This document shows positions 19,030 through 39,421 of a DNA stretch of 40,751 bases, piece by piece. The position numbers and the translations under genes were made by a program. Positions within the stretch are counted from its first letter, which is position 1. Every line of letters starts with the position of its first letter. Origin of the DNA: Escherichia phage HK022; the sequence record NC_002166.1. One strand, written 5' to 3'. The notes under the pieces are model-generated. The model did no database searches and was not told the DNA's origin. It saw nothing but the letters and a program-made list of their open reading frames with translations.

Positions 19030-20130
19030 ATGCTTTATAACACTGGAACCATCGCCATTAACGGAAACAGCGCCACCGGCACGGGCACGAACTGGACGGC
19101 ACCCGCCAGCCAGGTTCGCGCTGGCCAGACGATTATCGTGATGTCTAACCCGGTGCAGCTGTTTCAGATTTCATCCGTGAACAGCGCCACGTCAATGACG
19201 GTTACTCCAGCTGCTTCCCCGGCGCTGAGCGGCCAGAAGTATGGAATTCTTGTGTCGGACATTATCTCGGTTGATGGGCTGGCACAGGCCATGTCACAGC
19301 TCATCAAAGAGTACGACGAGAATATTGGCGCGTGGGAGACCTTCGCCAGCACCTCAGCAAACCAGCTGGTCACTGTGACAATCAACGGCACCAGCCTCAG
19401 CATTCCTGCCATCGGTGGTCTCGCCCGGAAAGGGGCAAATAGCGATATCACAGAGCTGAAAGGGCTAAGTACAGCATTGAGTGTTGCTCAGGGTGGGACA
19501 GGTGGCAAAAACGCTACGGACGCAGCAAATAATATTGGTGTTGGGCCTGCCAGTTATCCATTATTTTCTGGAGCGACCGTTTCGACAACAGGCTATGCAA
19601 TTCTCGGAGCGCAAAATACTTCGCGAGAAGCAACGGATGTTGGGGCACGCGTTCAGCTTGAAGCGTCTATTGCTGCAAACGCTCCCGCAGTAATCATACA
19701 AAGGAATAATCAGAATAATCAGACAGGACAAATACGCTCAGTACTGCCATCAACATCTGGCACACTTGCTGTGCAGGGAACATCAGGAAGAGACTATAAA
19801 AAGAACATTTCTCCTGCGAATCCAGAAGAGGCTTTAGGAAGAATACTTGCGCTTGAGCTTGTCAATTTTGTTTACAAGGATGATGAGAAGGATCGCCAGA
19901 GATTTGGGATTATTGCGGAAGACGCAGAAGTTATTGCTCCACAATATATTAAACACAACCAAGAACCGATTCCAGGAACGGAGGTTTTCAATGAAGATGG
20001 ACACAAGATAGGAGAGGAGTTCCGTGATCGCCCATCAGTAGACAATAATCCTATTGTGATGGACCTGATTGGGTGTATTCATGGGTTGCAAAGACAAATT
20101 ACCGATCTTAGACAGGAGCTTGTTGACTAA
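19030..20130 (+). CDS. tail fibre protein with C-terminal intramolecular chaperone-like domain
   Basis: 366 aa from ATG 19030 (GGAGAA RBS); the track's upstream start at 18985 would read through the terminator; C-terminal segment RFGIIAEDAEVIAPQYI resembles the self-cleaving chaperone domain of tail fibres and tailspikes. Confidence 0.7.
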   Translation: MLYNTGTIAINGNSATGTGTNWTAPASQVRAGQTIIVMSNPVQLFQISSVNSATSMTVTPAASPALSGQKYGILVSDIISVDGLAQAMSQLIKEYDENIGAWETFASTSANQLVTVTINGTSLSIPAIGGLARKGANSDITELKGLSTALSVAQGGTGGKNATDAANNIGVGPASYPLFSGATVSTTGYAILGAQNTSREATDVGARVQLEASIAANAPAVIIQRNNQNNQTGQIRSVLPSTSGTLAVQGTSGRDYKKNISPANPEEALGRILALELVNFVYKDDEKDRQRFGIIAEDAEVIAPQYIKHNQEPIPGTEVFNEDGHKIGEEFRDRPSVDNNPIVMDLIGCIHGLQRQITDLRQELVD

Positions 20131-20452
20131 AGCCTTTTAGTAAAATCTTGATTTCAGGAATCAAAACTTCCATTGGTTAGATAGGTTGGATTAGTGAAAA
20201 AACCGCAAATCCTAGACCGACAGAGCGAGGAACATTCACGGATTGTTTACAATATGCAATGCTGCAGTCACGCAATAATTAACGGGCTGCGGCAGCGGCC
20301 AGGTTGTTCATGCCCTGGCGAGTGCAGAAAGTATATAATTTAATAATGCGGTCACCACATGTTTTGCCCGATTTTGGTTGCCGTACTGATAGCCTCAGCC
20401 GGTTCTTTGAATAATCTTGCGGTAGCCAGACTCCAACTCCCACTCCTTTGAC

Positions 20453-20492
20453 AAAAAATTAGCGCAAGAAGACAAAAATCACCTTGCGCTAA
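20453..20492 (-). terminator. rho-independent terminator downstream of int (lambda tI/sib-like position)
   Basis: TTAGCGCAAG / CTTGCGCTAA 10-bp inverted repeat with 14-nt loop, followed on the minus strand by T6; about 230 nt beyond the int stop. Confidence 0.5.
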
Positions 20493-20501
20493 TGCTCTGT
20501 C

Positions 20502-20730
20502 TCAGGTCACTAATACTATCTAAGTAGTTGATTCATAGTGACTGGATATGTTGCGTTTTGTCGCATTATGTAGTCTATCATTTAACCACAGATTAGTGTA
20601 ATGCGATGATTTTTAAGTGATTAATGTTATTTTGTCATCCTTTAGGTGAATAAGTTGTATATTTAAAATCTCTTTAATTATCAGTAAATTAATGTAAGTA
20701 GGTCATTATTAGTCAAAATAAAATCATTTG
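20502..20730. other. attP region with lambda-type Int arm sites
   Basis: P-arm CAGGTCACTA (20503..20512) and inverted ATAGTGACTG (20535..20544); IHF-like site between them; P'-arm AGGTCATTAT / TAGTCAAAAT / AAATCATTTG at 20700..20730; spacing places the core near 20639..20653. Confidence 0.65.
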
Positions 20731-21797
20731 TCGATTTCAATTTTGTCCCATTCCCGTCCACGGCTGTCCCTATACCGCGCCGCCATTGAATCTGATTTAT
20801 GCCCGAGAAGACGTTGAGCAAACTTATCGCCAATCTGGTTCCGGTATAGCCTCGCTGACAGGCTACGCAGTTCATGGAATGTTGGCGGGTTTCCATCAAA
20901 TGAGAGTCCAGATGCATTTCTCGCCTTTGTAAAATACTTTGATACTGTTTTCGGGGAAAGCGGATCGTGATGCTTTGATGCGATTATAGTTTCACTGCTG
21001 CTGGCCTCCCTGCATTGCTGTAGTGTATCAGCCAATGAGATATTGAGCGCGTCAATCGTTAGCGTTAGTGGAATGGCGAGTTTAGCCCCTGTTTTACTCT
21101 GTTCAATGTGAAGATGGTTGTCGTTTATGTCTGACCATTTCATTCTGCACAAATCGCCTACTCTCTGCCCTGTAACGACAGCCAAATCCATTGCCAGTCT
21201 CAGCCAGATTGGGAGCGGTTCGGCTGCATGGTATATCGCGACATATTCATTAGCTGTCAGTCTTGAACGCCTTACTTCTGATTTTGCTGTGCGGGTTGCT
21301 GTTACCGGATTCGTAGCCACATGCCCCTCGGCTATTGCCTCACGAAAAACGTCAACAAGGGTTGACCTGATCAATTTTGCGGAAGCCGATTTGCCTTCTG
21401 CTACGTAGGTGTTTAGCATTGCTGCCACCTCTTTCGTTGATATGTCAGCGAGCGGTTTGTCCGGCAATTTTCTTCGGATTGCTCTGATTTTGCTGGCGTA
21501 GTCGAGTAGAGTTTTCGGCCTGATACCCCTCTCGCTGAGGATTGTTTCATATCGGTCAAGCCACGCATGAAGAGTGATTGCGTCAGCGCCTTTAATTCTG
21601 TCTATCAGTGACTCACGCCTGTTCCCGGATAGCAACTCAATGTTGGCCTGTATAGCTTCAGTGATTGCGATTCGCCTGTCTCGGCCTAATCCAAACTCTT
21701 TACCCGTCCTTGGGTCCCTGTAGCAGTAATATCCATTGTTTCTTATATAAAGGTTAGGGGGTAAATCCCGGCGCTCATGACTTCGCCTTCTTCCCAT
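20724..21797 (-). CDS. int: tyrosine integrase (lambda Int family)
   Basis: 357 aa; N-terminal arm-binding region and C-terminal catalytic region closely resemble lambda Int as recalled (e.g. HELRSLSARLY, LLGHKSD). Confidence 0.95.
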   Translation of the reverse strand: MGRRRSHERRDLPPNLYIRNNGYYCYRDPRTGKEFGLGRDRRIAITEAIQANIELLSGNRRESLIDRIKGADAITLHAWLDRYETILSERGIRPKTLLDYASKIRAIRRKLPDKPLADISTKEVAAMLNTYVAEGKSASAKLIRSTLVDVFREAIAEGHVATNPVTATRTAKSEVRRSRLTANEYVAIYHAAEPLPIWLRLAMDLAVVTGQRVGDLCRMKWSDINDNHLHIEQSKTGAKLAIPLTLTIDALNISLADTLQQCREASSSETIIASKHHDPLSPKTVSKYFTKARNASGLSFDGNPPTFHELRSLSARLYRNQIGDKFAQRLLGHKSDSMAARYRDSRGREWDKIEIDK

Positions 21798-21993
21798 TTC
21801 TGATCCTCTTCAAAAGGCTACCTGTTACTGGTCGATTTAAGTCAACCTTTACCGCTGATTCGTGGAACAGATACTCTCTTCCATCCTTAACCGGAGGAGG
21901 GAATATCCTGCATTCGCGCACCCATCGACGAACTGTTTCAAGGCTTCTTGGGCGTCGCTGGCGAGCGTTCCACTCCTGAAGTGTTAAGTACAT
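21775..21993 (-). CDS. xis: excisionase
   Basis: 72 aa from ATG 21993 (MYLTLQEWNARQRRPRSLETVRRWVRECRIFPP...), essentially the lambda Xis sequence as recalled; overlaps int start. Confidence 0.9.
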   Translation of the reverse strand: MYLTLQEWNARQRRPRSLETVRRWVRECRIFPPPVKDGREYLFHESAVKVDLNRPVTGSLLKRIRNGKKAKS

Positions 21994-22097
21994 CGCAAAG
22001 TCTCCGCAATTACACGCAAGAAAAAGCCGCATTGATGCGGCGATGGTAGGTCTGGATATCTTGAGAAATGAACAGGCCTCATCGAGTGTGAGGCGGG

Positions 22098-22442
22098 TTA
22101 GTCCTTGCGTAGCTCGCTGATTCTTCTGTAAGTCTCTGGTGCTTTGTTTCCGTGTATCTTCATTTCAGACTTCAACAGAGCAACGAGGGAATCCCATTCG
22201 TTGAGGATTCCTTTGAATGACGGAACGCGCTTTGCAACCTTGTCGAATGAATCTCTGATTTCTGGAATCTGCTCAACAAGTGCAACGCATCGCCGGAAGT
22301 CTGCTGCGTCATGGGGAGCGCCGAAGTGATGACCATAGATATTCTTTTTCAGTCCACATGCGATTGAGGCAAGAGTTGCGCTACTGATGCCGACATCGCC
22401 AGTCGATTGCCATTTCAAAATCTTCATAGCCAAATCTGACAT
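22098..22442 (-). CDS. hypothetical protein (114 aa)
   Basis: ATG 22442 with GGAGA 6 nt upstream; preceded on the minus strand by a terminator. Confidence 0.5.
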   Translation of the reverse strand: MSDLAMKILKWQSTGDVGISSATLASIACGLKKNIYGHHFGAPHDAADFRRCVALVEQIPEIRDSFDKVAKRVPSFKGILNEWDSLVALLKSEMKIHGNKAPETYRRISELRKD

Positions 22443-22454
22443 TTCTTGTCTCCA

Positions 22455-22479
22455 ATAAAAAACCGCCATCAGGCGGTTT
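22455..22479 (-). terminator. rho-independent terminator in leftward operon
   Basis: CCGCC-tgat-GGCGG hairpin followed by T6 on the minus strand. Confidence 0.6.
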
Positions 22480-22648
22480 GGTGTTCTTTCAGTTCTTCAA
22501 TTCGAATATTGGTTACGTCTGCATGTGCTATCTGCGCCCATATCATCCAGTGGTTATAGCAGTCGTTGATGTCCTCTGCTTCGATAACTCTGTTGAATGG
22601 TTCTCCATTCCATTCACCTGTGACTCGGAAGGCATTTATCATCTCCAT
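22469..22648 (-). CDS. hypothetical small protein (59 aa)
   Basis: ORF below the 60-aa track cut-off; stop codon lies inside the terminator hairpin; weak RBS. Confidence 0.3.
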   Translation of the reverse strand: MEMINAFRVTGEWNGEPFNRVIEAEDINDCYNHWMIWAQIAHADVTNIRIEELKEHQTA

Positions 22649-22707
22649 AAAACAAAACCCGCCGTAGCGAGTTCAGATAAAAGAAATCCCCGCGAATGCG
22701 AGGATTG

Positions 22708-22992
22708 TCATTCATTGTCGATATTCACCTTTATCGCGAACACCTTTACCGGTTTATCACCGAAGTGCGGATGTGTGATTGTCTTGATTTCATATCCGTC
22801 ATACGGGACGTCAATTCTACGACTGGAGTCGTCGCGCTTCGGATATCCCTTTGTGATAATCAGTCGGTCATAATCCCTGAACATAATTCGCTTATTCCAG
22901 TAGTCATTACACAGTCGATACTCTTCCGTTTTCTCCCTGCGAATCATGGCATCGAAGTATTCACCTTTGACGGCAAGTTGCAGGTTAGCCAC
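22708..22992 (-). CDS. hypothetical protein (94 aa)
   Basis: GTG start with AGGAGG 6 nt upstream; start overlaps stop of upstream gene. Confidence 0.5.
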   Translation of the reverse strand: MANLQLAVKGEYFDAMIRREKTEEYRLCNDYWNKRIMFRDYDRLIITKGYPKRDDSSRRIDVPYDGYEIKTITHPHFGDKPVKVFAIKVNIDNE

Positions 22993-23350
22993 GGTTAACC
23001 TCCTGCGGCGGTTCCGGTAGCGGCATCCAGTGTGACGGTTTCCACGACGCCCCAGGAATTAGCCACCCATCATTAGCGTCAGGATGCCCCGGGATGTAAG
23101 TCGCCCATTTCATTCGCCAGTCACCTTTCCTGTCAAACTCCCTGGCAACAAGAACGGCTGTTTTGCTATCCGGCATTCGCTCACTACAGCTTATCCAACC
23201 ATCCGGAGTTACCGGATAGTTGCCAGCCTTACGCATGGCAATCTCCACGATTTCAACCATATCTCCTGGCAGAATTTTACAAAGCTGGCCAAAGCGCCTC
23301 TGCTGCCTGGCATACTCGAGGATGTGCTCCAGTTTGGTTCGATTAATCAT
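22985..23350 (-). CDS. hypothetical protein, DUF551-like C-terminus
   Basis: 121 aa; C-terminal W.PLPEPP motif typical of DUF551 phage proteins; AAGGGGGA RBS. Confidence 0.55.
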   Translation of the reverse strand: MINRTKLEHILEYARQQRRFGQLCKILPGDMVEIVEIAMRKAGNYPVTPDGWISCSERMPDSKTAVLVAREFDRKGDWRMKWATYIPGHPDANDGWLIPGASWKPSHWMPLPEPPQEVNRG

Positions 23351-23712
23351 GATTTATCCCCCTTAAGCATGGCTGCACGGCAGGCATTCCAGCCTCTCAC
23401 CTCTGCAATAGCGGCAACAGCATCGACCGCGTACATGCTAAGAGGGTTAGGCATTGTTTTTTCTTCAGGTACTACTGGCACTGGAGGGGCGGCATAAACA
23501 GGAATAACGTCCGCTTGCTCTTTATTGCTTTCATCCGTTAAAGCCCAGAATAATTTCCCGGCCGGATGTTTGAAAATATAAGCAACTGGATCTGCTTCCA
23601 GCGATGCCAGTGCAATTTCATAAGCACGGCGCTCAATATTGTCTCGAACGTCCAAGCTGCCTATGCGCTCTTTGATTTCTTTAATCAGTTCTTTGTCGGT
23701 AAAAGTGGTCAT
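23347..23712 (-). CDS. hypothetical protein (121 aa)
   Basis: ATG 23712 with AGGAGA 5 nt upstream; stop overlaps downstream start (ATGA). Confidence 0.5.
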   Translation of the reverse strand: MTTFTDKELIKEIKERIGSLDVRDNIERRAYEIALASLEADPVAYIFKHPAGKLFWALTDESNKEQADVIPVYAAPPVPVVPEEKTMPNPLSMYAVDAVAAIAEVRGWNACRAAMLKGDKS

Positions 23713-23713
23713 A

Positions 23714-24421
23714 TCACTCTCCTTTGATGCGAATGCCAGCAAGCCAGTTTCTTATGCCGATATATTCAGCGTTCCTGAAACCGCTTTTTACATATATAAA
23801 TGGCAAGCGAAGATTGTGACCATTGACTGCCAGGTAGTCTTTACAACCCTGTTCGGTGAAACAGCAGGTAACGAATTCATCAATATCTTTCACAGCAACG
23901 CGCCGCCATTTTTCTGGTGGCTCTCGAAAGTTTTCGTGAAGTAGTTCGAGACGACGACTTTGGCGTTTATTGGCTTCATTGCCATCTTCATCAACCCAGA
24001 CAATCCGGTCATAGTCATAATCAGCATCAACAACGATTTCGCGCTTTTGATACACACAAAACATAGGGTCTGACGTTATTCGATTATCCTGTGTTCGAAT
24101 ATTTTCACCGATGATGCCAAACGAATCTGGTGCAGAGTTTGTCTGCAACTCTTCGATACGTTCAGCCATAGCAGCACACTCTTCAAAGTTGCTTAATGCT
24201 TTTCGCTCCCATTCGGCGCATTGTTTTTCCAGTTCTGCTATGCGCTTACTCCCATCCGAGATAACGCCCTCGTAATACTCACGCTGCTCGTTGAGTTTTG
24301 ATTCAAGTTCACCGAACTTACGGACAAGATATTCAGCGTTTGTTTCGTTAACCTTTAAATCTCGTGGGATGCATTTACCTTTCAGAAATCCATCCATCTC
24401 AATTAGTGACATTTGTTTCAT
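23714..24421 (-). CDS. hypothetical protein (235 aa) with N-terminal coiled coil
   Basis: ATG 24421 (track start at 24439 is GTG); translationally coupled to neighbours. Confidence 0.5.
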
Positions 24422-24582
24422 TTCTTCCCACTCCGCCACATCGCATTCAGATATTTGTTTTGATTCACTGATGGAAAAGAATTTCTCTTTAGCAATTCCT
24501 CTCTCGATGGCATTGGCTTTACGCGTTGGCGAATAATCATTTCTGCCGGAAGAATTCCTGGATTGTATGCAAGTCCTCTCAT
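24418..24582 (-). CDS. hypothetical small protein (54 aa)
   Basis: ATG 24582 with GAGGA 7 nt upstream; stop overlaps next start (ATGA); below track cut-off when started here. Confidence 0.35.
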
Positions 24583-24592
24583 GGTAAATTCC

Positions 24593-24886
24593 TCAGTCAT
24601 TACTGATAGCGCCATAGCGTGAGCGGTAATTACGCAGGCGCGGGTCAATTTCAGGGAAGTGGGTATATGTGGCTTTGCGGAATGGTCGGATTGATGTCTG
24701 GTAAATTCGCTCGCGTTCTTCTTTCTCTGCAAGCCATATACAATGGCGAAATTCCTTTTCCTCTTTCGTTTCCTGCGGTAGCGACATTATCCGGTTGTAG
24801 TTTTTCCTGAATTTATCCAGCACCTCCGATACGGAATTGCCGGAACAGCGGCGCGCGTCATCCGCACCATACAGAGGCGCAGGCAT
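24593..24886 (-). CDS. hypothetical protein (97 aa)
   Basis: ATG 24886 with AAGGA upstream; basic protein. Confidence 0.4.
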
Positions 24887-24909
24887 AATGGAATCCTTAT
24901 GTTGCTAAT

Positions 24910-25293
24910 TTAGAAGGGAATTGAATCGTCGTATTCAGGATGATTTTGATGATTGCTACTTTGTTGCTGTTGGCTGTTTCCTGAAGTTGCAAATCCAATC
25001 TTTGCATTCAGTAATTCAAGAGTGATTGATTGACCATTTTGCCCCTGATAAACATCAACCCTGATGTTTTCTCCGGTAATTTCTACAATGCCACCTTCAA
25101 CAAGAACACTACGGTAGTAATCCGCTTGCGCTCCCGGCTTGGCAAATACAACGGCGCTGTAGTTTGTCCATTCTTTCTTTTTTGTCTGGCGATCGTAATA
25201 CTGAACGCCAGCACGGATGTTGAATCCGATATTTTCCCCGGCCTGAAACTCTCTTGCGGGCTTGTTTAGTCTTACAGTAATCGAATGTGCCAT
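24910..25293 (-). CDS. single-strand DNA-binding protein-like
   Basis: 127 aa from ATG 25293 (overlaps erf-like stop, TAATG); C-terminal acidic tail ...PEYDDSIPF resembles the SSB DDDIPF tail; Gln-rich linker. Confidence 0.6.
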   Translation of the reverse strand: MAHSITVRLNKPAREFQAGENIGFNIRAGVQYYDRQTKKKEWTNYSAVVFAKPGAQADYYRSVLVEGGIVEITGENIRVDVYQGQNGQSITLELLNAKIGFATSGNSQQQQSSNHQNHPEYDDSIPF

Positions 25294-25898
25294 TAAGCAG
25301 CCGCTCCTTCTAATTCGTCTCGTCTGATGTTGTAAACGTCCTGCGCTTTGTGCTGCTCCGGTGTTCCTTCGAGCATCTTCCACGCTTTGGCGAACGCCTG
25401 TTTAAGCTCTTCCACGGTGTTTTTTTGCATTGCTGCGTCAGTGAATGCTTTTAGAACCTGTTCAGGTGTAGGTGATGGGTTTGATTGCTTTGCTGCTGCG
25501 TTCTGCTGATGTTTATGTTCGTCGGTATCTGCATCTTTCGCATCATCAATGCCGAACAAACCATTGAGGCAATACTTGCGTGCATAAGAGCTTGTAGCTC
25601 CAGTAACTTGTGCAGAATCCATTCCTTTCTTGCTTTCTTCCTCTCGTGCAAGGGCGGTTGCTGTATGACTGTTTTCGCCATCAGTAATAGTTGCTGTTGC
25701 TTTCACGTAATACCGATCACCAATCAACACAACTTCATCGCTGATTGATAAAAACAGGCCATTCAGTAACGGCTTAACACCCTCAAGAATGTCTTCGCAG
25801 CTTCTGTATTTATATTTACCGAATGAGTTGTACTGATTCTTTGGCGCGTTCAGATTCTCCTGAATGGCTGCCAGTCTTGCGTAAAATTCTTTGCTCAT
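25293..25898 (-). CDS. erf: Erf-family single-strand annealing protein
   Basis: 201 aa from ATG 25898; N-terminus MSKEFYARLAAIQENLNAPKNQYNSFGKYKYRSCEDILEGVKPLL matches my recollection of P22 Erf. Confidence 0.6.
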   Translation of the reverse strand: MSKEFYARLAAIQENLNAPKNQYNSFGKYKYRSCEDILEGVKPLLNGLFLSISDEVVLIGDRYYVKATATITDGENSHTATALAREEESKKGMDSAQVTGATSSYARKYCLNGLFGIDDAKDADTDEHKHQQNAAAKQSNPSPTPEQVLKAFTDAAMQKNTVEELKQAFAKAWKMLEGTPEQHKAQDVYNIRRDELEGAAA

Positions 25899-25908
25899 AT
25901 GTTTGTTC

Positions 25909-26079
25909 TCAGAATGGACATGGCCCAAGGAAATAACGCTGATTTAATACTTCAGTCTTTGCCGCATTCAAAAATACGCGAACACCTTCACGATCTCCCT
26001 TCTGGCGATACATTAACGCCTGCTGCGTGTACATGCGTCTCTGTAACTTGCTCTCCTTCACTGTGGTTGCAAGTGACAT
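25909..26079 (-). CDS. hypothetical small protein (56 aa) upstream of erf
   Basis: ATG 26079 preceded by AAGGAG with 6-nt spacer; not in the ORF track (under 60 aa); overlaps the weaker track ORF 25988..26173. Confidence 0.4.
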   Translation of the reverse strand: MSLATTVKESKLQRRMYTQQALMYRQKGDREGVRVFLNAAKTEVLNQRYFLGPCPF

Positions 26080-26291
26080 GAATATCTCCTTCGTTACCGA
26101 TTAATTCTTTCATCTGACGAATGAATTCTTCGTCTGACCAGTTATCTGTAAAACTCATTTCCTGCGATACCATGGAAGGTTGATAGCTGATTTCATCGCT
26201 TTATTTGCTTCAAGCCACATTTTTGAATCACCAATAAATCTGGCTATTACTGCTTTGTTCTGTGCAGCACGAAGCATCTGGTGATTGATGG

Positions 26292-26426
26292 CTATTTCAT
26301 TGCGCATAACGCCTCCAGTTGTTTCTTTGCTGCTCTGATTAATTGTTTAACTCGGCGTGATAATTCAGATTCGTGCGGGTAGAAAGCGGACATGACGCCG
26401 CTACCCGCGAGCTGAAAGTGCATCAT
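26292..26426 (-). CDS. cIII: CIII-like protein
   Basis: 44 aa from tandem ATGs at 26426/26423 with AAGGAG 6 nt upstream; central HESELSRRVKQLIRAAKK resembles the lambda CIII amphipathic core (PSESLLERITRKLRDGWKR). Confidence 0.5.
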   Translation of the reverse strand: MMHFQLAGSGVMSAFYPHESELSRRVKQLIRAAKKQLEALCAMK

Positions 26427-26492
26427 GGGTAACTCCTTATATTTGATTGCATAACGAAAACGCCTCGAGTGAAGCGTTATTGTTATGCATAT

Positions 26493-26516
26493 AAAAAGGC
26501 CCTCACATCGGAGGGC
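26493..26516 (-). terminator. rho-independent terminator upstream of cIII-like gene (tL1-like)
   Basis: GCCCTC-cgatgt-GAGGGCC hairpin followed by T5 on the minus strand. Confidence 0.5.
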
Positions 26517-26600
26517 AAAGAAGATTTCCAATAATCAGAACAAGTCGGCTCCTGTTTAGTTACGAGCGACATTGCTCCGTGTATTCACTCGTTGGAATGA

Positions 26601-27657
26601 GGCTTTGTTGAATAAATCAGATTTCGGGTAAGTCTCCCCCGTAGCGGGTTGTGTTTTCAGGCAATACGCACGCTTTCAGGCATACCTGCTTTCGTCATTT
26701 TGTTCAGCGCTCGTACCAGGGCCATAGCCTCTGCAACCTGACCATCGTAGTCACGCAGTGTCAGTGAACCCCCGAACAGCTGTTTTACCCGGTACATCGC
26801 CGTTTCCGCTATCGAGCGACGGTTGTAATCTGTTGTCCATTTCCACCGCGCATTACTCCCGGTCATTCGCTGATTAGCCACTGCACGGTTACGGTCTGCA
26901 TATTCACCGGGCCAGTAACCCGCACCTTTTCGGGGAGGGATAAGCGCGCTGATTTTCTTACGCCGCAGTTCATCGTGACATAGCCGGGTATCGTAAGCGC
27001 CATCGGCGGCGGCTGACCTGATTTTCCGGTGGGTTTGCCGGATTAACCCGGGGAAGGCCTCTGAGTCCGTAACGTTGTTCAGCGACAGGTCAGCGCAGAT
27101 GATTTCATGTGTTTTACTGTCAACGGCGAGATGCAGCTTACGCCAGATACGGCGGCGTTCCTGGCCATGCTTTTTGACTTTCCACTCGCCTTCACCGAAG
27201 ACCTTCAGCCCGGTGGAATCAATTACCAGGTGTGCGATTTCACCCCGGGTGGGCGTTTTGAAACTGACATTAACCGACTTTGCCCGCCTGCTGACACAGC
27301 TGTAATCCGGGCAGCGTAGCGGAACGTTCATCAGAGAAAAAATGGAATCAATAAAGCCCTGCGCAGCGCGCAGGGTCAGCCTGAATACGCGTTTAATGAC
27401 CAGCACAGTCGTGATGGCAAGGTCAGAATAGCGCTGAGGTCTGCCTCGTGAAGAAGGTGTTGCTGACTCATACCAGGCCTGAATAGCTTCATCATCCAGC
27501 CAGAAAGTTATGGAGCCACGGTTGATGAGGGCTTTATTGTAGGTGGGCCAGTTGGTGATTTTGAACTTTTGCTTTGCCACGGAACGGTCTGCGTTGTCGG
27601 GAAGATACGTGATCTGATCCTTCAACTCAGCAAAAGTTCGATTTATTCAACAAAGCC
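26601..27657 (-). mobile_element. IS903-like insertion sequence (IS5 family), 1057 bp
   Basis: Perfect 18-bp terminal inverted repeats GGCTTTGTTGAATAAATC (26601..26618 and 27640..27657); flanked by 9-bp direct repeat TTGGAATGA (26592..26600 and 27658..27666). Confidence 0.9.
26657..27580 (-). CDS. IS903-type transposase
   Basis: 307 aa from GTG at 27580 (track extends to a TTG at 27625); ends ...MTKAGMPESVRIA as in IS903 transposase. Confidence 0.85.
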   Translation of the reverse strand: MAKQKFKITNWPTYNKALINRGSITFWLDDEAIQAWYESATPSSRGRPQRYSDLAITTVLVIKRVFRLTLRAAQGFIDSIFSLMNVPLRCPDYSCVSRRAKSVNVSFKTPTRGEIAHLVIDSTGLKVFGEGEWKVKKHGQERRRIWRKLHLAVDSKTHEIICADLSLNNVTDSEAFPGLIRQTHRKIRSAAADGAYDTRLCHDELRRKKISALIPPRKGAGYWPGEYADRNRAVANQRMTGSNARWKWTTDYNRRSIAETAMYRVKQLFGGSLTLRDYDGQVAEAMALVRALNKMTKAGMPESVRIA

Positions 27658-27724
27658 TTGGAATGAATACACAGTGCAGTGTTTATTCTGTTGTTTGCGT
27701 GAAAATGAAACCCGCCTGAGCGGG

Positions 27725-28063
27725 TTATGACCACTTTTTGTTTGGGTTTCGCTGGTGAGCGTGATTAACAACTCTGTGCATTACATCCTCATATTTTTCA
27801 TCTTCAATTTTTTCGACATCGCGAGGAAATGGTGTTGCTAATGCTTTGTCAACTTTGTCCATTGGGTCTTCATTAATCTTATATTCAGGACCGTCATCTA
27901 TAGCATTAAATCCAGGTGTCACACCGTTTTTTAATGCATATGCTATCCTTTTTTCCCATCTCGCTATTCTCCTCCTGTCTCGAGATGTAAGACCTCTATC
28001 AGATACTTTTCTGTTTTGTCCGCTGTCAGGATTAACATAAATAGTCTTTTTCACCATAAGCAT
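27725..28063 (-). CDS. nun: Nun-like arginine-rich transcription termination factor (N-position protein)
   Basis: 112 aa from first ATG (track start 28069 is TTG); arginine-rich motif RKVSDRGLTSRDRRRIARWEKR; acidic centre; C-terminus ...NPNKKWS; no SD, as for N-like genes. Confidence 0.75.
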   Translation of the reverse strand: MLMVKKTIYVNPDSGQNRKVSDRGLTSRDRRRIARWEKRIAYALKNGVTPGFNAIDDGPEYKINEDPMDKVDKALATPFPRDVEKIEDEKYEDVMHRVVNHAHQRNPNKKWS

Positions 28064-28239
28064 ACCCAATAAGCACCGTACGGTAGTTTACTGTACAATT
28101 TTATTTTTTGGACTGCATGTATTTTGTTTCCTAATGGGTTTGAATCTTTGCAATAAATACTTCTATTTTTTCGAACGACTTCTATATCAAAAAGCTGCTT
28201 TGCTTTTTGTGACTAAAAGCAAAAAAGCCTTCTCGCTAA

Positions 28240-28310
28240 TGAGCAGCATTGCCGTTCATCCTGAACCCGCCGCGCTCCCGACGCATGGTTTAAAGACGCG
28301 CCGTTCGTCT
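28240..28310 (-). promoter_or_regulatory. putL-like cis-acting RNA element
   Basis: GC-rich segment immediately downstream of the predicted pL start, sharing sequence blocks with the element at 29460..29520. Confidence 0.5.
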
Positions 28311-28315
28311 ATGGG

Positions 28316-28344
28316 CTTATGATGTACTTAAAGTTCATTAATGT
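28316..28344 (-). promoter_or_regulatory. candidate pL promoter
   Basis: minus-strand TTGGTA (-35), 17-nt spacer, TATAAG (-10); flanked by operator-like repeats. Confidence 0.4.
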
Positions 28345-28421
28345 AAAGTACCAATAGTACATTTTATGGGTATAAAAAGCTCACTACATCATAAGTTAGT
28401 GAACTTTAAGGAAATTTATTT

Positions 28422-29129
28422 TTATCCGAATCGCTTGTAATCGATTGACTGCCTAATGAGGACTTTGGCTAGAATGTGAAGTTGCTCTTCTTCACCTTCT
28501 TCTATGTACCATCGATCATAAGCGGCATTGTCAGAGATGACGGCAAGCCTGTTCTTTTGCATTTGCAGGCGCTTAACGTGCATTGTTTTCCCGTATACAA
28601 ACACATAAATGCCATCGCCATCAAAACAGGTTATGGATACATCAACAAAGATCTCATCTCCCGGATTGATGGTTCCCTCCATGCTGTCACCGCGAACCGT
28701 GATGACTTTTACGCTTTCCTGTGGCCTTCCATTAAATAAAATTCTTGCCTGCTCGGTCGTATATTCAATTGCTCTTATCTTTTCTATAAATTCATTGGAA
28801 ACCATGGTTCCTGGCCCGGCGCTCGCCTGAACATCCAATACATCAACACGATAATAATCATTTGATCTTGATAGATGATTTACCGTGATACCGTCATCAT
28901 CAGCATAGCCATGCAGATATGCAGCAGTAGTTCCCAGCACCGAAGCCAGAGATTCCATCTTGTCTTTTCTTGGTATTGACTCCCCGTTGAACCATTTACT
29001 AATGGCTTTTGGTGTGACCTTAAGCCTGACAGCTAAATCAGCCTGCCTACCATGCAAAGGTAATCCCGCTTTATCACAGGCCAGCGCAAGCCTCTGCGAG
29101 AAAGTTTCACGCTCTTTCTGTTGAACCAT
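28422..29129 (-). CDS. cI: CI-type repressor (HTH + S24 LexA-like peptidase domain)
   Basis: 235 aa from ATG 29129; N-terminal HTH, Ala-Gly cleavage site (ASAGPG), catalytic Ser in GDSMEG and Lys in HVKRL; longer track ORF would overlap pR and cro. Confidence 0.85.
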   Translation of the reverse strand: MVQQKERETFSQRLALACDKAGLPLHGRQADLAVRLKVTPKAISKWFNGESIPRKDKMESLASVLGTTAAYLHGYADDDGITVNHLSRSNDYYRVDVLDVQASAGPGTMVSNEFIEKIRAIEYTTEQARILFNGRPQESVKVITVRGDSMEGTINPGDEIFVDVSITCFDGDGIYVFVYGKTMHVKRLQMQKNRLAVISDNAAYDRWYIEEGEEEQLHILAKVLIRQSIDYKRFG

Positions 29130-29136
29130 AAGTTCA
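29122..29136. promoter_or_regulatory. operator-like palindrome TGAACCATAAGTTCA (copy 1)
   Basis: 15-bp sequence with perfect TGAAC/GTTCA arms; centre overlaps the cI ATG. Confidence 0.45.
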
Positions 29137-29149
29137 ACTATATTAGGTA

Positions 29150-29178
29150 TTGACTGTACTATCAGTTCCGTCATAATA
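29150..29178 (+). promoter_or_regulatory. candidate pR promoter
   Basis: TTGACT (-35), 16-17 nt spacer, CATAAT/ATAATA (-10), 30 nt upstream of cro ATG. Confidence 0.55.
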
Positions 29179-29193
29179 TGAACCATAAGTTCA
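29179..29193. promoter_or_regulatory. operator-like palindrome TGAACCATAAGTTCA (copy 2)
   Basis: Identical 15-mer directly downstream of the pR -10 element. Confidence 0.45.
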
Positions 29194-29208
29194 CCACAGG
29201 AGAGAAGC

Positions 29209-29439
29209 ATGAACGAAGTTACGTTTGGAGAAGTTATCAAATCCGTTCGAGTTTCTGTTGTGGCTGATGTTTGTGGACTTACGCCAAAAGCCATCTATAA
29301 GTGGCTTGAGCGTGGTTCTCTGCCGCGTACCGAGTTCACTGGTGAAACCGAATATGCGGATAAGATCGCCAAGGCATCAGGCGGCAAGTACTCAGCAGCA
29401 CAGATTCGCCGTATCGGTAAACAGCAGTTTGTTATGTAA
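29209..29439 (+). CDS. cro: Cro-like repressor
   Basis: 76 aa; AGGAGA RBS; HTH (GLTPKAIYKWLERG); divergent from cI across the operator region. Confidence 0.7.
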   Translation: MNEVTFGEVIKSVRVSVVADVCGLTPKAIYKWLERGSLPRTEFTGETEYADKIAKASGGKYSAAQIRRIGKQQFVM

Positions 29440-29459
29440 TAAAAATGTACTTTTAGTAC

Positions 29460-29520
29460 CGAACGGCCCGGTATACGGTCGGGTGCCCGGCGTGGTCAAG
29501 GATGACTGTCAATGGTGCAC
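29460..29520 (+). promoter_or_regulatory. putR-like cis-acting RNA element
   Basis: GC-rich structured segment between cro and cII; shares CGAACGGC, GTCGGG, GCCCGGCG and GGTCAAGGATGACTGTCAATGGTGC-like blocks with 28240..28310. Confidence 0.5.
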
Positions 29521-29560
29521 GATAAAAACCCAAATTATTTACCTATGGAGATAGTAAGAA

Positions 29561-29857
29561 ATGACACAAACAAGTTACAGCAAGCCAACACAGCGAGAAA
29601 TTGATCGCGCTGAAACTGATTTACTCATCAACCTGTCAACGCTTACCCAGCGCGGTCTGGCAAAGATGATTGGCTGTCATGAATCGAAGATAAGCAGAAC
29701 GGACTGGAGATTTATTGCTTCGGTCTTGTGTGCTTTCGGAATGGCATCAGACATCAGTCCGATTAGCAGGGCTTTTAAGTATGCGCTTGATGAAATCACA
29801 AAGAAAAAATCCCCGGCCGCCACCGAGGATTTTAAGCAAATTGATATGCAATTCTGA
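29561..29857 (+). CDS. cII: CII transcriptional activator
   Basis: 98 aa; C-terminus [18 protein letters not shown] parallels lambda CII KKRPAATERSEQIQMEF; GGAGA RBS. Confidence 0.85.
29570..29583 (-). promoter_or_regulatory. candidate CII-binding site of a pRE-like promoter (TTGC-N6-TTGT)
   Basis: minus-strand TTGCTGTAACTTGT within the first codons of cII, same position as the lambda TTGC-N6-TTGC. Confidence 0.35.
29804..29828 (-). terminator. candidate terminator of an oop-like antisense RNA
   Basis: minus-strand CCTCGG-uggcgg-CCGGGG hairpin followed by ATTTTTT, inside the 3' end of cII. Confidence 0.35.
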
Positions 29858-29889
29858 GGGAATTACTGGATCAATCCACAGGAGTAATT

Positions 29890-30036
29890 ATGACAAAACA
29901 ACTCAGTCCTTACCAGGACAAAATTCACAAACACATACTACGTGATCGCTTCCTGTCCAGCTTCAAGCAGCCTGGTCGATTCCGGGCTGAGTTGGAAAAA
30001 GTGAAGCTGATGCAGAAGGAGAAAGGTCATGAGTAA
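29890..30036 (+). CDS. hypothetical small protein (48 aa) between cII and the O-like gene
   Basis: GGAG 5 nt upstream of ATG 29890; stop overlaps the O-like start; basic protein; below track cut-off. Confidence 0.35.
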
Positions 30037-30928
30037 CATATCTAATCTAGCCGAAGCCAGAGAGGCCAGAAGGCTACAACAACCGCATCAAAGCAGCGGT
30101 AAGGGGTATGCCTTGCTGCACCGTAAAATTATGGATGTGCCGTTTTACAAGGATGCAGAAGCAGCGCATCTGTGGGTTCACTTAATCCTCAAAGCAAAGC
30201 ATACGCCTGAGTATGTAATGACTGACGCAGGAGAAATTCTGGTAGGTAGAGGGAAGCTACTTGGCGGTAGAAACTCTCTGGCGTTTGAAACAGGGCTCAA
30301 ACCAGATCGCGTTCAGTACCTGCTTAGAAAGTTCAAAAAACTCGGCATGATTGACTGGGTTTCACACGGTAAATTCTCAGTTTTCTCGGTAGAGAAATAT
30401 GACGATTATCAGTCAAATTTTGTACCAGCAGATTACCAGCAAATTACCACCTCAAAGCCAGCAATATCAATGTCTGTAAGCAATACTGTCCCAGCAGATT
30501 ACCAGCAAATTACCACAGATAAAGAATATAATAATATTATCTCTAATACTGACGTATTAGAGAGTGCCACAGCAGACAAAAAGTCTGACAAGAAAAAACC
30601 TTCCGTTAGCTGTCAGGATGTTGTCGATGCTTACCACGAAATCCTTCCTGAAGCGCCAAGAATCCGCGCACTGAATGACAAGCGTAAAAACCAGATCCGA
30701 ACGTTCTGGCGCAAAGCCGGAGTGATAACCCGCCAGCTTGACGGGCATGGGTTCACGATGCAGGACTGGAGAAATTATTTGAGCTACGTAGGCGAAAATT
30801 GCCGATGGATGTTCGAAGAGCGTCCAAACCATCAACGCGGAACCGTCTGGCACAAAAAGGGATTTGATTTCCTGCTTAACGATAATACCTACCTGAAAGT
30901 TCGTGAGGGTGAACACGATGACCGATAA
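30029..30928 (+). CDS. replication initiator (O-like / P22 gp18-like)
   Basis: 299 aa; contains the iteron array inside its coding sequence (repeated peptide [10 protein letters not shown]); followed by the helicase gene. Confidence 0.75.
30425..30516. repeat. candidate replication origin iterons
   Basis: Two perfect 26-nt direct repeats CCAGCAGATTACCAGCAAATTACCAC (30425..30450 and 30491..30516), each with two 11-nt sub-iterons, followed by an AT-rich stretch (30517..30545). Confidence 0.55.
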
Positions 30929-32354
30929 TTTTTATGCGCCGCCCCATAGCATCGAGGCAGAGCAGGCGGTGATTGGTGGATTGCTTCTGGATGATGACAG
31001 CAGTGAGCGCGTCCAGAAAGTCCTGGCGATGCTGAAGCCTGATTCATTTTACAGCCGACCACACAAAATCATTTTCGAAGAAATAACCAGAATGCACCGG
31101 GAGCAAAAGCCAGTAGATGGCCTGACGCTTTTCGATGAACTGGAGCGTAAATCGTTAACGGCGTCTGTTGGCGGTTTTGCTTATATCGCTGAGATCGCAA
31201 AGAACACGCCAAGCGCAGCAAACATCGTTGCCTATGCAATGCAGGTTCGAGAAACCGCAATGGAACGCTACGCCATCAACCGCATGACTGAAGCGACGGA
31301 ATTGCTCTATTCCCGCAACGGAATGACTGCAACGCAGAAGTACGAAGCTATTCAGTCGATTTTCACGCAACTGACAGACCATGCAAAAACCGGATCGCGT
31401 CGCGGCCTTCGTTCATTTGGTGAGGTCATGGAAGACTGGGTTAGCGACCTTGAGAAGCGATTTGACCCATCAGGCGAACAACGGGGAATGAGCACAGGGA
31501 TCCCATCGCTGGACAGGATGCTGTCACCGAAAGGTCTGGTGAAAGGCTCTCTGTTTGTCATTGGCGCTCGCCCTAAGATGGGTAAAACGACGCTATACAG
31601 CCAGATGGCAATCAACTGCGCAGTGCATGAGAAAAAGCCCGCTCTGATGTTCAGCCTTGAAATGCCCGGTGACCAGATACTGGAAAAACTGGTGGGACAG
31701 AAGTCAGGTGTTAACCCGAATATTTTTTACCTTCCGGCGACAAATGACGCTGATGACGGCTATCAGGGTGATTACGATGGTGACTTCAACAGGGCGATCG
31801 AAACAGCAAATCGCTTGAGTGAAATCGATATGCTTTACATCGACGACACGCCTGGATTATCTCTGGCACAAATCGTCAGCGAAAGCCGTCGAATCAAGCG
31901 AGAAAAAGGATGTGTTGGCATGATTCTGGTCGATTACCTGACACTAATGACCGCTGAGAAGGCCGATCGTAACGACCTTGCTTACGGCATGATCACCAAA
32001 GGATTGAAGAACCTTGCCAAAGAGCTTGATTGCGTTGTTGTGCTTCTGACACAGCTTAACCGCGCACTGGAAAGCCGAACCAATAAACGCCCATTACCAA
32101 GTGACTCGCGCGATACAGGGCAGATTGAACAGGATTGCGATTATTGGGTGGGGATCCATCGTGAAGGTGCTTTTGATGACAGTGTTCCACCTGGTGAAAC
32201 CGAACTAATCCTTCGTCTCAATCGTCATGGCAATACCGGCACGGTGTATTGCATTCAGGCAAATGGCGCTATTTATGACACAGACCAACAGTCTGCTGAA
32301 ATGCGCCGCCGTGAACGCGAGGAACCGCAATCCAAGAAGAAAGGAGGATTCTGA
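30918..32354 (+). CDS. replicative DNA helicase (DnaB family)
   Basis: 478 aa from ATG 30918 (GAGGG RBS); Walker A GARPKMGKTT and DnaB-like C-terminal domain. Confidence 0.9.
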   Translation: MTDNFYAPPHSIEAEQAVIGGLLLDDDSSERVQKVLAMLKPDSFYSRPHKIIFEEITRMHREQKPVDGLTLFDELERKSLTASVGGFAYIAEIAKNTPSAANIVAYAMQVRETAMERYAINRMTEATELLYSRNGMTATQKYEAIQSIFTQLTDHAKTGSRRGLRSFGEVMEDWVSDLEKRFDPSGEQRGMSTGIPSLDRMLSPKGLVKGSLFVIGARPKMGKTTLYSQMAINCAVHEKKPALMFSLEMPGDQILEKLVGQKSGVNPNIFYLPATNDADDGYQGDYDGDFNRAIETANRLSEIDMLYIDDTPGLSLAQIVSESRRIKREKGCVGMILVDYLTLMTAEKADRNDLAYGMITKGLKNLAKELDCVVVLLTQLNRALESRTNKRPLPSDSRDTGQIEQDCDYWVGIHREGAFDDSVPPGETELILRLNRHGNTGTVYCIQANGAIYDTDQQSAEMRRREREEPQSKKKGGF

Positions 32355-32435
32355 TGACCATCTACATCACTGAGCTAATAGCAGGGTTATCGTTACTAAT
32401 GGTTCTTACTGTATATATTATTAAGTATATTCTTT

Positions 32436-33047
32436 ATGCGAATAAAAAAACTAATTGATCACGATGAGCTTCTGTCAACATTATCATATGACTCAGAAAC
32501 AGGAATATTTAAATGGCTAAAAACAAATTCAGTAGTAAGAGTAAAAGGTAGTATTGCTGGAGGTGTTAGTGGTGGTTATATATGCATTAGCATAAATAAT
32601 GTTTTGTATTATGCGCATAGACTTGCTTGGTTCTATGTATACAAAAAATGGCCTCCTAAGTTTATTGATCATGTAAATGGGAACAGACTTGACAATAGGA
32701 TTTCAAATCTAAGACTGGCAACAGAAGAGCAGAATGCAAGAAACATTGTAGGGAATAGATTAAACACATCCGGTGCAATTGGAGTGTCTTGGTATAAGCC
32801 AACTGGCAGGTGGAAGTCTTATGTTGGTTATAAAAATAAGACAATATCGTTAGGGTATTTCGATAGCAAAGAAGATGCAGCATTCATAGCAGCACTAGCA
32901 AGAAAGAAACTATATGGAACTTATGCGAGTAAAGCACTTAATTGCGAGCATGAGCTTTTATCTCAATTTAATAATGATGAGGATAAACTTGCGGAATATC
33001 TTAAGGAAAAATCTAAAAGGACTCGAAAGCGTGTTAAAAACAGATAA
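32436..33047 (+). CDS. HNH endonuclease with AP2-like DNA-binding domain
   Basis: 203 aa; HNH core (HRLAW...IDHVNGNRLDNRISNLRLAT..EQN) plus AP2-like segment (GVSWYKPTGRWKSYVGYKNKTISLGYF); region markedly AT-rich. Confidence 0.7.
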   Translation: MRIKKLIDHDELLSTLSYDSETGIFKWLKTNSVVRVKGSIAGGVSGGYICISINNVLYYAHRLAWFYVYKKWPPKFIDHVNGNRLDNRISNLRLATEEQNARNIVGNRLNTSGAIGVSWYKPTGRWKSYVGYKNKTISLGYFDSKEDAAFIAALARKKLYGTYASKALNCEHELLSQFNNDEDKLAEYLKEKSKRTRKRVKNR

Positions 33048-33049
33048 AG

Positions 33050-33076
33050 GCCTGCTGGTAATCGCAGGCCTTTTTA
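33050..33076 (+). terminator. rho-independent terminator
   Basis: GGCCTGC-tggtaat-GCAGGCC hairpin plus T5. Confidence 0.65.
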
Positions 33077-33094
33077 TTTGGGGGAGAGTAAATC

Positions 33095-33301
33095 GTGGTT
33101 GAGTTGATTTTCTCTGCATTGAGGCTTCTCGGTGCTCTGTGGATGGTGGCGACGTTCATTGTGGTTGCTGGCTGTTTTGTCCGGTTGGTAGGCGAAGGTA
33201 AAGACCTGGTGGGTGTGCTTTTCGGTAGCATTTTCCTGTGGGTGATTATCGGTGTTATGCCTGTCGCTGTAGCCAAAATGGCGTGGCGTTTTGTGAGTTG
33301 A
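33095..33301 (+). CDS. small membrane protein (68 aa)
   Basis: GTG start with GGGGAGAG upstream; two hydrophobic helices. Confidence 0.4.
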   Translation: MVELIFSALRLLGALWMVATFIVVAGCFVRLVGEGKDLVGVLFGSIFLWVIIGVMPVAVAKMAWRFVS

Positions 33302-33318
33302 ACTGAGGGTAAGTATCG

Positions 33319-33636
33319 ATGGACGAATCAAGAAAGCAGTTTGAAGAAAGTTGGTTGCGACGTGGAGGCGAATCATCAGACCTTATCCGTTACCCTGAAA
33401 ATCACCATGAAATTGGCAGTGGTGATATTGGTGGTCAATACGTGATGGACGATGTTCAAGGCCACTGGCAAACGTGGCAGGCATCGCGAGCAGCTATCGA
33501 GATTGAGTGTCCTGGAGAAAGAGAGCGTGAGGCATTTTCTACCGATTTCGAGGATGGGGTCACATTTGGTTATAACAACGCAATTAGTGAATGCGAAGGA
33601 CGGATTCGCGCTGCTGGAGTCAAAGTGAAGGAGTGA
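33319..33636 (+). CDS. hypothetical protein (105 aa)
   Basis: ATG with GAGGGTAAG upstream; acidic. Confidence 0.5.
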   Translation: MDESRKQFEESWLRRGGESSDLIRYPENHHEIGSGDIGGQYVMDDVQGHWQTWQASRAAIEIECPGEREREAFSTDFEDGVTFGYNNAISECEGRIRAAGVKVKE

Positions 33637-33640
33637 GTAT

Positions 33641-33895
33641 ATGCCATTTATAAAATTAACCATGCAATGCAGCATCTATCAGCCACCAAGCACAGGCGTG
33701 ATAGAAAGCACCAGAAGTGCATATGAGCCCTTGTACGTTAACTCTGACAACATCGAAACCCTATTTGAGGCCGGGATTACGATTGTAAGAATGGCAAGTG
33801 GTGAGCGGTTCGATGTTATTGAGAAACCAGAAGCTATTTTGGCGTTAATTAATCCATGTGTGCAGAAGGTGAGCAATGAGGAAACTAACGTTTGA
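33641..33895 (+). CDS. hypothetical protein (84 aa)
   Basis: AAGGAG RBS upstream of ATG 33641. Confidence 0.45.
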   Translation: MPFIKLTMQCSIYQPPSTGVIESTRSAYEPLYVNSDNIETLFEAGITIVRMASGERFDVIEKPEAILALINPCVQKVSNEETNV

Positions 33896-34316
33896 ACTAA
33901 GAAGCCCCATCCATCAGCAGAACGCCATTCAAGCCATCCAGCAAATCCTTCCAGACCCAACAAAACCAATCGTAGTAACCATTCAGGAGCGCAACCGCAG
34001 CTTAGACCAAAATCGGAAGCTTTGGGCTTGCCTTGGTGACGTCTCTCGTCAGGTTGAATGGCATGGTCGCTGGCTGGATGCAGAAAGCTGGAAGTGTGTG
34101 TTTACCGCAGCATTAAAGCAGCAGGACGTTGTTCCTAACCTTGCCGGGAATGGCTTTGTGGTAATAGGCCAGTCAACCAGCAGGATGCGTGTAAGCGAAT
34201 TTGCGGAGCTATTAGAGCTTATACAGGCATTTGGTACAGAACATGGCGTTAAGTGGTCAGACGAAGCGCGACTGGCTCTGGAGTGGAAAGCGAGATGGGG
34301 AGACAGGGCGGCATGA
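33876..34316 (+). CDS. ninB: NinB (Orf-family recombination mediator)
   Basis: 146 aa; [15 protein letters not shown] motif as in lambda NinB. Confidence 0.85.
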
Positions 34317-34495
34317 GACGACAGCGACGAAGTATCACCGACATCATCTGTGAAAACTGCAAATACCTTCCAACGAAACGCTCCAGAAATAAACGCAAGC
34401 CAATCCCAAAAGAATCTGACGTAAAAACCTTCAACTACACGGCTCACCTGTGGGATATCCGGTGGCTTAGAGAACGTGCGAGGAAAACAAGGTGA
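34313..34495 (+). CDS. ninE: NinE
   Basis: 60 aa from ATG 34313 (overlaps ninB stop): [30 protein letters not shown]..., matching lambda NinE as recalled. Confidence 0.75.
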
Positions 34496-34662
34496 TTGAC
34501 CAAAATCGAAGTTACGAACAAGAAAGCGTCGAGCGGGCTTTAACGTGCGCTAACTGCGGTCAGAAGCTGCATGTGCTGGAAGTTCACGTGTGTGAGCACT
34601 GCTGCGCAGAACTGATGAGCGATCCGAATAGCTCAATGTACGAGGAAGAAGACGATGAATGA
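34492..34662 (+). CDS. ninF: NinF
   Basis: 56 aa from GTG 34492: [38 protein letters not shown]...; under track cut-off; matches lambda NinF as recalled. Confidence 0.65.
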
Positions 34663-35380
34663 GTTAATAAATGGCAATGCCATCAAAATGACAAGCATTG
34701 AAATCGCTGAGTTGGTAGAAAGCCGCCATAGCAATGTAAAAGTATCCATAGATAGATTGGTGAAACGTGGCGTTATCAAGCCTCCTGCATTGCAGCACAC
34801 TAACATAATCAATGATTTAGGTGTTATTACCGGGAAGCGTGATTTCTACGTCTTCGAGGGCGAACAAGGTAAGCGAGACAGCATTATTGTCGTCGCTCAG
34901 TTGTCGCCGGAATTCACCGCTCGTCTTGTTGACCGTTGGCGAGAGCTTGAAGAAGCTGCGGTTAATATCCCCAAAACGCTACCAGAAGCGTTGCGCCTTG
35001 CTGCTGACCTTGCTGAGCAGAAAATGCAACTGGAAAACCAGCTCGCAATTGCCGCACCTAAAGTTGAGTTTGCCGATCGCGTTGGCGAGGCCAGCGGAAT
35101 TTTGATTGGAAACTTTGCAAAGGTTGTCGGTATTGGTCCAAACAAACTGTTTGCGTGGATGCGTGATCACAAAATCCTTATTGCTTCAGGTTCCCGGCGC
35201 AATGTGCCAATGCAGGAATATATGGATCGCGGCTATTTCACAGTGAAAGAAACAGCGGTCAACACAAATCACGGAATACAGATATCGTTCACCACAAAAA
35301 TCACCGGGCGTGGTCAACAGTGGCTGACCAGAAAGTTGCTCGATAACGGAATGCTGAAAGTAACAGGGGAGGCTGCTTAA
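34655..35380 (+). CDS. Rha-family regulatory protein / antirepressor-like (Rha N-terminal + KilA-C-like domain)
   Basis: 241 aa; ATG overlaps ninF 3' end. Confidence 0.7.
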   Translation: MNELINGNAIKMTSIEIAELVESRHSNVKVSIDRLVKRGVIKPPALQHTNIINDLGVITGKRDFYVFEGEQGKRDSIIVVAQLSPEFTARLVDRWRELEEAAVNIPKTLPEALRLAADLAEQKMQLENQLAIAAPKVEFADRVGEASGILIGNFAKVVGIGPNKLFAWMRDHKILIASGSRRNVPMQEYMDRGYFTVKETAVNTNHGIQISFTTKITGRGQQWLTRKLLDNGMLKVTGEAA

Positions 35381-36834: not shown

Positions 36835-36876
36835 CAGCATGATTGCCACGGATGGCAACATATTAACGGCATGATA

Positions 36877-39419: not shown

Positions 39420-39421
39420 TC

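Follow-up and report, generated by a model that had tools for sequence, protein, structure and literature searches.

The attachment site attP of coliphage HK022: lambda-type integrase arm sites around a different core

The attP of coliphage HK022 was described by Yagil et al. in 1989 (J Mol Biol 207:695, cited in PMC6814406 and PMC7736782), and has been in use since that year for mapping the specificity determinants of its integrase, Int. Binding and recombination at the site are covered by Yagil 1989, Kolot & Yagil 1994 and Yagil, Dorgai and Weisberg 1995 (as cited in PMC7736782, PMC6007267 and the mv4 preprint). The bacterial partner, attB-HK022, is given in PMC7736782 as a 21-bp site in which a 7-bp overlap, the same in attP, separates two 7-bp Int sites. 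PMC6814406 places HK022 integration between torS and torT and counts 73 bp from the int stop codon to the junction. The attB of lambda lies between gal and bio. The HK022 att system underlies the CRIM integration vectors as well as HK022-Int tools for genome engineering and gene therapy, and it explains the control that the prophage exerts over torS/torCAD. In 2019 a new analysis of attP dealt with the effect that it has on torS.

We analysed a stretch of DNA of 40,751 bp, referred to here in its entirety as the window. A sequence-only reading of this DNA had proposed an attP at 20502-20730 with lambda-type Int arm sites, a different core and therefore a different attB. Our analysis supports that overall reading, but the site was already known, since it is the attP of HK022 itself (Yagil et al. 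1989). We regard it as practically certain that window positions 20504-20730 are the attP of coliphage HK022, a textbook site, and as judged from its sequence the whole window is almost certainly the HK022 genome. The identity with HK022 established by alignment rests on a 2.7-kb record spanning int, xis and attP.

The attP region and its likeness to HK022 and lambda

We compared positions 20131-20760 with phage records by megablast. Phage mEp235 matched at 100% identity over all 630 bp, and its record labels the region 'prophage attachment site (type HK022)'. The same query matched GenBank X51962 ('Coliphage HK022 int and xis genes') at 99.6%; this record carries annotations for sib, an attP site at 243-469, int, xis and tL4. 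A blastn alignment of 20260-22976 with the whole 2,715-bp X51962 record contained no mismatches and two single-base gaps, neither of which falls in attP. On the window, the annotated attP spans 20504-20730, at most 2 bp away from the range first proposed. In 20260-20470, outside attP, the window contains two single bases that the 1989 record lacks; they are probably corrections of the older X51962 sequence. Across 22000-40751 the best single phage records (mEp506, HK75, mEpX2, mEp235 and HK97) cover 52-60% at ~97% identity, a patchy coverage typical of lambdoid mosaicism.

The elements of the region are as follows (window coordinates, strand, description).

20445-20506, minus: sib/tI hairpin on the int-sense strand, just outside the P arm; direct folding dG -32.1 kcal/mol, z -6.2
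20504-20730, plus: attP (POP'), equal to the annotated attP of X51962 (record 463 = window 20724)
20504-20513, plus: P1 arm-type Int site AGGTCACTAA, same as lambda P1
20521-20533, minus: H1 IHF site AATCAACTACTTA, 0 mismatches to WATCAANNNNTTR, same as lambda
20535-20544, minus: P2 arm-type Int site CAGTCACTAT, the sole perfect consensus match in the window, same as lambda
20547-20573, plus: predicted Xis-binding region with the X1/X2 homologues, TATGTTGCGTTTT...ATTATGTAGTCT, almost the same as in lambda; the assignment uses positional homology only
20599-20611, minus: H2 IHF site AATCATCGCATTA, 1 mismatch to the consensus, located where lambda has H2 (TATCAATATATTA)
20637-20643, plus: C core-type Int site ATCCTTT (lambda: CAGCTTT)
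20644-20650, plus: O, the 7-bp overlap AGGTGAA (strand-exchange segment), same in attP, attB, attL and attR (lambda: TTTATAC)
20651-20657, plus: C' core-type Int site TAAGTTG (reverse complement CAACTTA), same as lambda C'
20679-20691, plus: H' IHF site TATCAGTAAATTA, which fits WATCARNNNNTTR, 1 mismatch to the IHF consensus, at the lambda H' position
20700-20730, plus: arm-type Int sites P'1 AGGTCATTAT, P'2 TAGTCAAAAT and P'3 AAAATCATTTG, the last overlapping the int stop codon
20724-21797, minus: int, 357 aa, with a product 100% identical to HK022 Int; the 3'-terminal codons overlap P'3
21775-21993, minus: xis, 72 aa, 71/72 identical to lambda Xis, with a Pfam Exc match

The names X1 and X2 follow established usage for lambda attP.

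To place these elements against lambda, window 20470-20760 was aligned with lambda 27549-27869 (J02459) using MAFFT. From upstream of P1 through P'3 there is no internal gap, and the lambda coordinate equals the window coordinate plus 7085 throughout. With this constant offset, the 15-bp crossover core annotated in J02459 at 27724-27738 maps exactly onto window 20639-20653. The core had been predicted at about 20639-20653, and both the gapless alignment and the lysogen junctions described below show that position to be right. The two phages share the same set, order, orientation and spacing of P1, H1, P2, the X sites, H2, COC', H' and P'1-3. Aligning the site with both the lambda and the HK022 attP, as the sequence-only reading had suggested, yields lambda-type arms in the one case and a base-for-base match in the other.

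Identity to lambda varies strongly along the site. The segment from sib/tI to P1 is identical (35/35), and the P arm (P1-H1-P2) and P' arm retain 48 of 52 and 27 of 32 positions. The X/F/H2 interior falls to 54/87 and the interior between the core and P'1, including H', to 19/41; the segments from H2 to the core and from the core to P'1 are just 46-62% identical. In the 21-bp core 12 positions are shared, and in the overlap one of the seven (HK022 AGGTGAA, lambda TTTATAC). P1, P2, H1 and the C' half-site are identical to their lambda counterparts, as is the sib/tI hairpin, while P'1 and P'2 each differ from lambda by one base (C-to-T changes). Since TAAGTTG is common to both phages as C', the divergence of the core sits in C and the overlap. 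Neither the lambda core GCTTTTTTATACTAA, which has no occurrence anywhere in the 40,751 bp, nor the lambda overlap is carried by this attP. The 'int 4' binding feature of J02459 (27814-27854) does not coincide with P'1-P'3, which by sequence lie at 27785-27814; apparently the old annotation is offset here.

The core of the window reads ATCCTTT, AGGTGAA, TAAGTTG, with CTT triplets placed symmetrically at -7 to -5 and +5 to +7 around position 20647. This agrees with the 7+7+7 core architecture given in PMC7736782 and with the CTT requirement of core sites stated in bioRxiv 10.1101/2023.11.06.565760. The three predicted IHF sites H1, H2 and H' have 0, 1 and 1 mismatches to the consensus, and all three are at lambda-homologous positions.

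The strings from which the arm sites were first recognised each occur once in the window: CAGGTCACTA at 20503, ATAGTGACTG at 20535, AGGTCATTAT at 20700, TAGTCAAAAT at 20710 and AAATCATTTG at 20721, together with the proposed core 15-mer CCTTTAGGTGAATAA at 20639-20653. The P and P' arm motifs had been read as those of lambda attP, and all of them are at, or at most one base from, the coordinates that this reading implied. The spacing from P1 to P'1 is indeed exactly that of lambda, but the figure of 198 bp given for it does not hold: it is 196 bp measured from AGGTCA to AGGTCA, or 197 bp from the starts of the strings. We also considered the arm-site consensus as a stand-alone statistic. Allowing up to two mismatches, MAGTCACTAT matches the whole window 55 times against 47.7 expected, and three of the matches fall within 206 bp at attP (Poisson P ~0.003). 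With no enrichment across the window and single motifs that are too degenerate, this statistic was dropped. As the consensus is uninformative by itself, support for the arm sites comes from their lambda-homologous positions and from identity with the HK022 attP as published.

Host site, crossover point and lysogens in E. coli

In E. coli MG1655 the attB reads GCA CTTTAGGTGAA AAAGGTT, with the 11-bp block at NC_000913.3 1056189-1056199, between torS and torT. The full 21-bp site, GCACTTTAGGTGAAAAAGGTT, occupies 1056186-1056206 and divides into GCACTTT-AGGTGAA-AAAGGTT; the unoccupied site reads GGTGCACTTTAGGTGAAAAAGGTTGAG, that is GGTGCA CTTTAGGTGAA AAAGGTTGAG. The same sequence was published in PMC5512741 for the wild-type attB-HK022 oligonucleotides. 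The block common to attP and attB is only 11 bp, CTTTAGGTGAA, at window 20640-20650. A search of E. coli genomes for the core thus finds a host locus that shares it, and the expectation that a different core implies a different bacterial site is borne out: attB is the torS-torT intergenic region, not the gal-bio region used by lambda. As an attB sequence the 15-mer CCTTTAGGTGAATAA was rejected, as attB matches it at 13 of 15 positions and the exact common block is 11 bp. Outside E. coli we found no exact 21-bp attB; a search of one-genome-per-species contigs gave three records with an exact match, all labelled E. coli.

The published distance of 73 bp can be placed on the window directly. It corresponds to 20651-20723, so the junction falls at 20650/20651, the right edge of the overlap 20644-20650.

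To locate the crossover in natural lysogens, megablast comparisons were made for 20600-21200, against 5,426 complete E. coli genomes, and for 20250-20680. The P'-int side (20600-21200) matched 191 records at an identity of at least 95%. Among the matches listed, nearly all on this side start at query position 41, which is window 20640, and matches on the P side (20250-20680) stop at window 20657. Strain CUPF12 has both hybrid sites, attL (BOP') and attR (POB'), at torS-torT, and the same break-points recur across the genomes listed. Its attL, which is int-proximal and adjoins torS, reads ...GGTCGGTGCA CTTTAGGTGAA TAAGTTGTATATT..., that is GGTGCA-CTTTAGGTGAA-TAAGTTG. Its attR, tail-proximal and adjoining torT, reads ...TTTTGTCATC CTTTAGGTGAA AAAGGTTGAGTCGC..., that is GTCATC-CTTTAGGTGAA-AAAGGTTGAG.

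A 301-bp probe for the empty site was uninterrupted in 5,215 of 5,417 matching complete E. coli genomes, so that about 200 genomes (~3.7%) are interrupted at torS-torT. This number is consistent with the 191 HK022-type P'-int matches. The occupancy of 'roughly 5%' quoted in PMC6814406 is likewise consistent with ~3.7%.

Strain EC5931 (NZ_CP104592.1) carries in its chromosome an intact POP' flanked by int and a P22-like tailspike gene. Both Int and Xis are encoded a second time 40 kb away, adjoining a frameshifted torS. EC5931 is a tandem double lysogen at torS-torT in which attP has been regenerated at the internal junction, as the Campbell model leads one to expect for a tandem lysogen. Its POP' is a natural variant attP: it is identical to the window at 20633-20676, which includes the 21-bp core, and at the P' arm sites, and departs from it chiefly in the stretch between the X sites and the core and at a few positions of the P arm.

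Integrase, excisionase and flanking elements

The Int protein encoded beside attP is identical to HK022 Int at 357 of 357 residues and to lambda Int at 265 of 355 (75%). Pfam assigns it an arm-binding domain (Arm-DNA-bind_1 PF09003, residues 1-68), a SAM-like domain (PF02899) and a catalytic domain (Phage_integrase PF00589, residues 179-346), and the nearest solved structures are the lambda Int tetramer and intasome (PDB 5j0n, 1z1g and 1z1b). The catalytic residues R212, K235, H308, R311, H333 and Y342 are all intact. By domain, identity to lambda Int is 91% in the arm-binding part (1-64), 69% in the core-binding part (65-175) and 72% in the catalytic part (176-356). A 91% identical arm-binding domain, compared with ~70% elsewhere, fits arm recognition that has been kept and core recognition that has diverged. 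The proposal that Int is diverged, with lambda-like arm recognition and an altered core specificity, is supported by the protein and by the overlap, which differs at six of seven positions.

At positions 99, 282, 283, 287 and 319, the residues of this Int are D, P, K, K and R, and those of lambda Int are N, S, G, R and E. We take these to be the five specificity positions of Dorgai, Yagil and Weisberg (1995). Published work bears this out in part: the specificity difference between the two integrases is described in PMC6007267 as coming down to 'just five key residues', and PMC7736782 gives R as residue 319 of HK022 Int. N99D and H329R are reported in PMC10863862 to shift lambda Int toward the HK022 attB.

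Xis had been described as lambda-identical. It is nearly so, but the identity is not complete, with one substitution (G59S) in 72 residues. The open reading frame list extends the xis frame to an upstream ATG at 22032. Directly upstream of the xis start, on the minus strand at 22006-22019, is a TTGC-N6-TTGC box, TTGCGTGTAATTGC, the counterpart of the cII-binding site that the mEp235 record annotates for its pI promoter.

The sib/tI hairpin is base-for-base that of lambda over 20460-20499, and retroregulation of int is thus presumably conserved. A scan of 20100-20800 for terminators of a simple pattern returned none; it missed sib/tI because the stem and loop are too long. Between the tail-fibre gene and sib, ~320 bp (20131-20450) have no lambda counterpart and are 100% common to mEp235; the only open reading frame in this interval encodes 54 aa (20279-20443, minus strand). 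On the other side, over the P' arm and the int end (20677-20734, minus strand), there are two sigma-70-like hexamer pairs directed toward the core, TCGACA-18-AATAAT and ATGACC-18-GATAAT. PMC6814406 reports that an outward-reading prophage promoter in this stretch drives torS in lysogens, and describes no clear -10/-35 elements for it.

From the literature and by analogy, we infer that binding by Int, IHF and Xis, the chemistry of strand exchange and the roles of the cofactors are as in lambda; for recombination at attP, the natural lysogen junctions stand beside the cited literature as its basis. Int would act as a heterobivalent tyrosine recombinase, with its N-terminal domain on the arm sites P1, P2 and P'1-P'3, and IHF would bend the DNA at H1, H2 and H'. 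On either side of the overlap at 20644-20650, the inverted C (ATCCTTT) and C' (TAAGTTG) sites would be occupied by the core-binding and catalytic domains of Int. By bridging arm and core sites, Int would form an intasome able to capture the naked 21-bp attB in torS-torT. Strand exchange would then proceed in order at the borders of the identical 7-bp overlap, via a Holliday junction, and yield attL on the torS side, by int, and attR on the torT side. Excision would be directed by Xis bound to the conserved X sites of the P arm.

Alternative readings and comparison with known systems

The lambda-like arms, xis gene and C' half-site could be taken to mean that this is an attP of lambda specificity, with a diverged lambda core still aimed at the gal-bio attB. 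The overlap speaks against this, as partner sites need overlap identity and six of the seven positions differ from lambda. The window has no copy of the lambda core string, Int carries HK022-type residues at all five of the positions listed above, and the attL/attR junctions already refute this reading, as every lysogen junction found is at torS-torT; we attach virtually no probability to it. Hardly any is left, too, for a crossover elsewhere in 20131-20723, with the lambda-homologous position being misleading, an outcome that the sequence-only reading had itself named as one that would overturn it. When this was checked against the lysogens, many independent E. coli genomes turned out to lose homology to the phage at 20640 (int side) and at 20650/20657 (tail side); 20640-20650 is the sole block common to attP and attB, and the junction published in PMC6814406 falls at its right edge.

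A decayed, non-functional att relic in a mosaic phage might be suspected from P'1 and P'2, each one base off lambda, and from the single mismatch to the IHF consensus in each of H2 and H'. Yet the sequence is that of the HK022 attP used experimentally, about 200 natural lysogens have precise junctions, and the POP' regenerated in the tandem lysogen matches the window at the core and the P' arm sites. Int is also intact, with every catalytic residue present, and we consider decay exceedingly improbable. It is very unlikely, too, that this copy of attP differs in function from the laboratory HK022 site, whether because of the two additional bases upstream of sib or because promoter-like elements in the P' arm act in ways beyond the published torS read-out promoter; were that so, attP would double as a host-regulatory element.

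The preferred reading is therefore the known HK022 site, for which the reasoning from sequence alone was accurate and from which no new biology follows. The correspondence with HK022 (X51962; NC_002166, Juhala et al. 2000) is complete in the att module: attP is the same base for base, Int at every residue, the Xis region is the same, and the attB at torS-torT is shared. Phages mEp235 and mEp506 and the HK022-type prophages at torS-torT share the core and the Int type with HK022, and their attL and attR are in the same register. The remainder of their genomes is mosaic, as in the P22-like tailspike phage of EC5931, and coverage of the early region in the mEp phages is 53-60%. Compared with lambda, HK022 is a classic natural case of a recombinase that has switched its target, in which the accessory layout of arms, Xis and spacing has been kept and the core and overlap are new.
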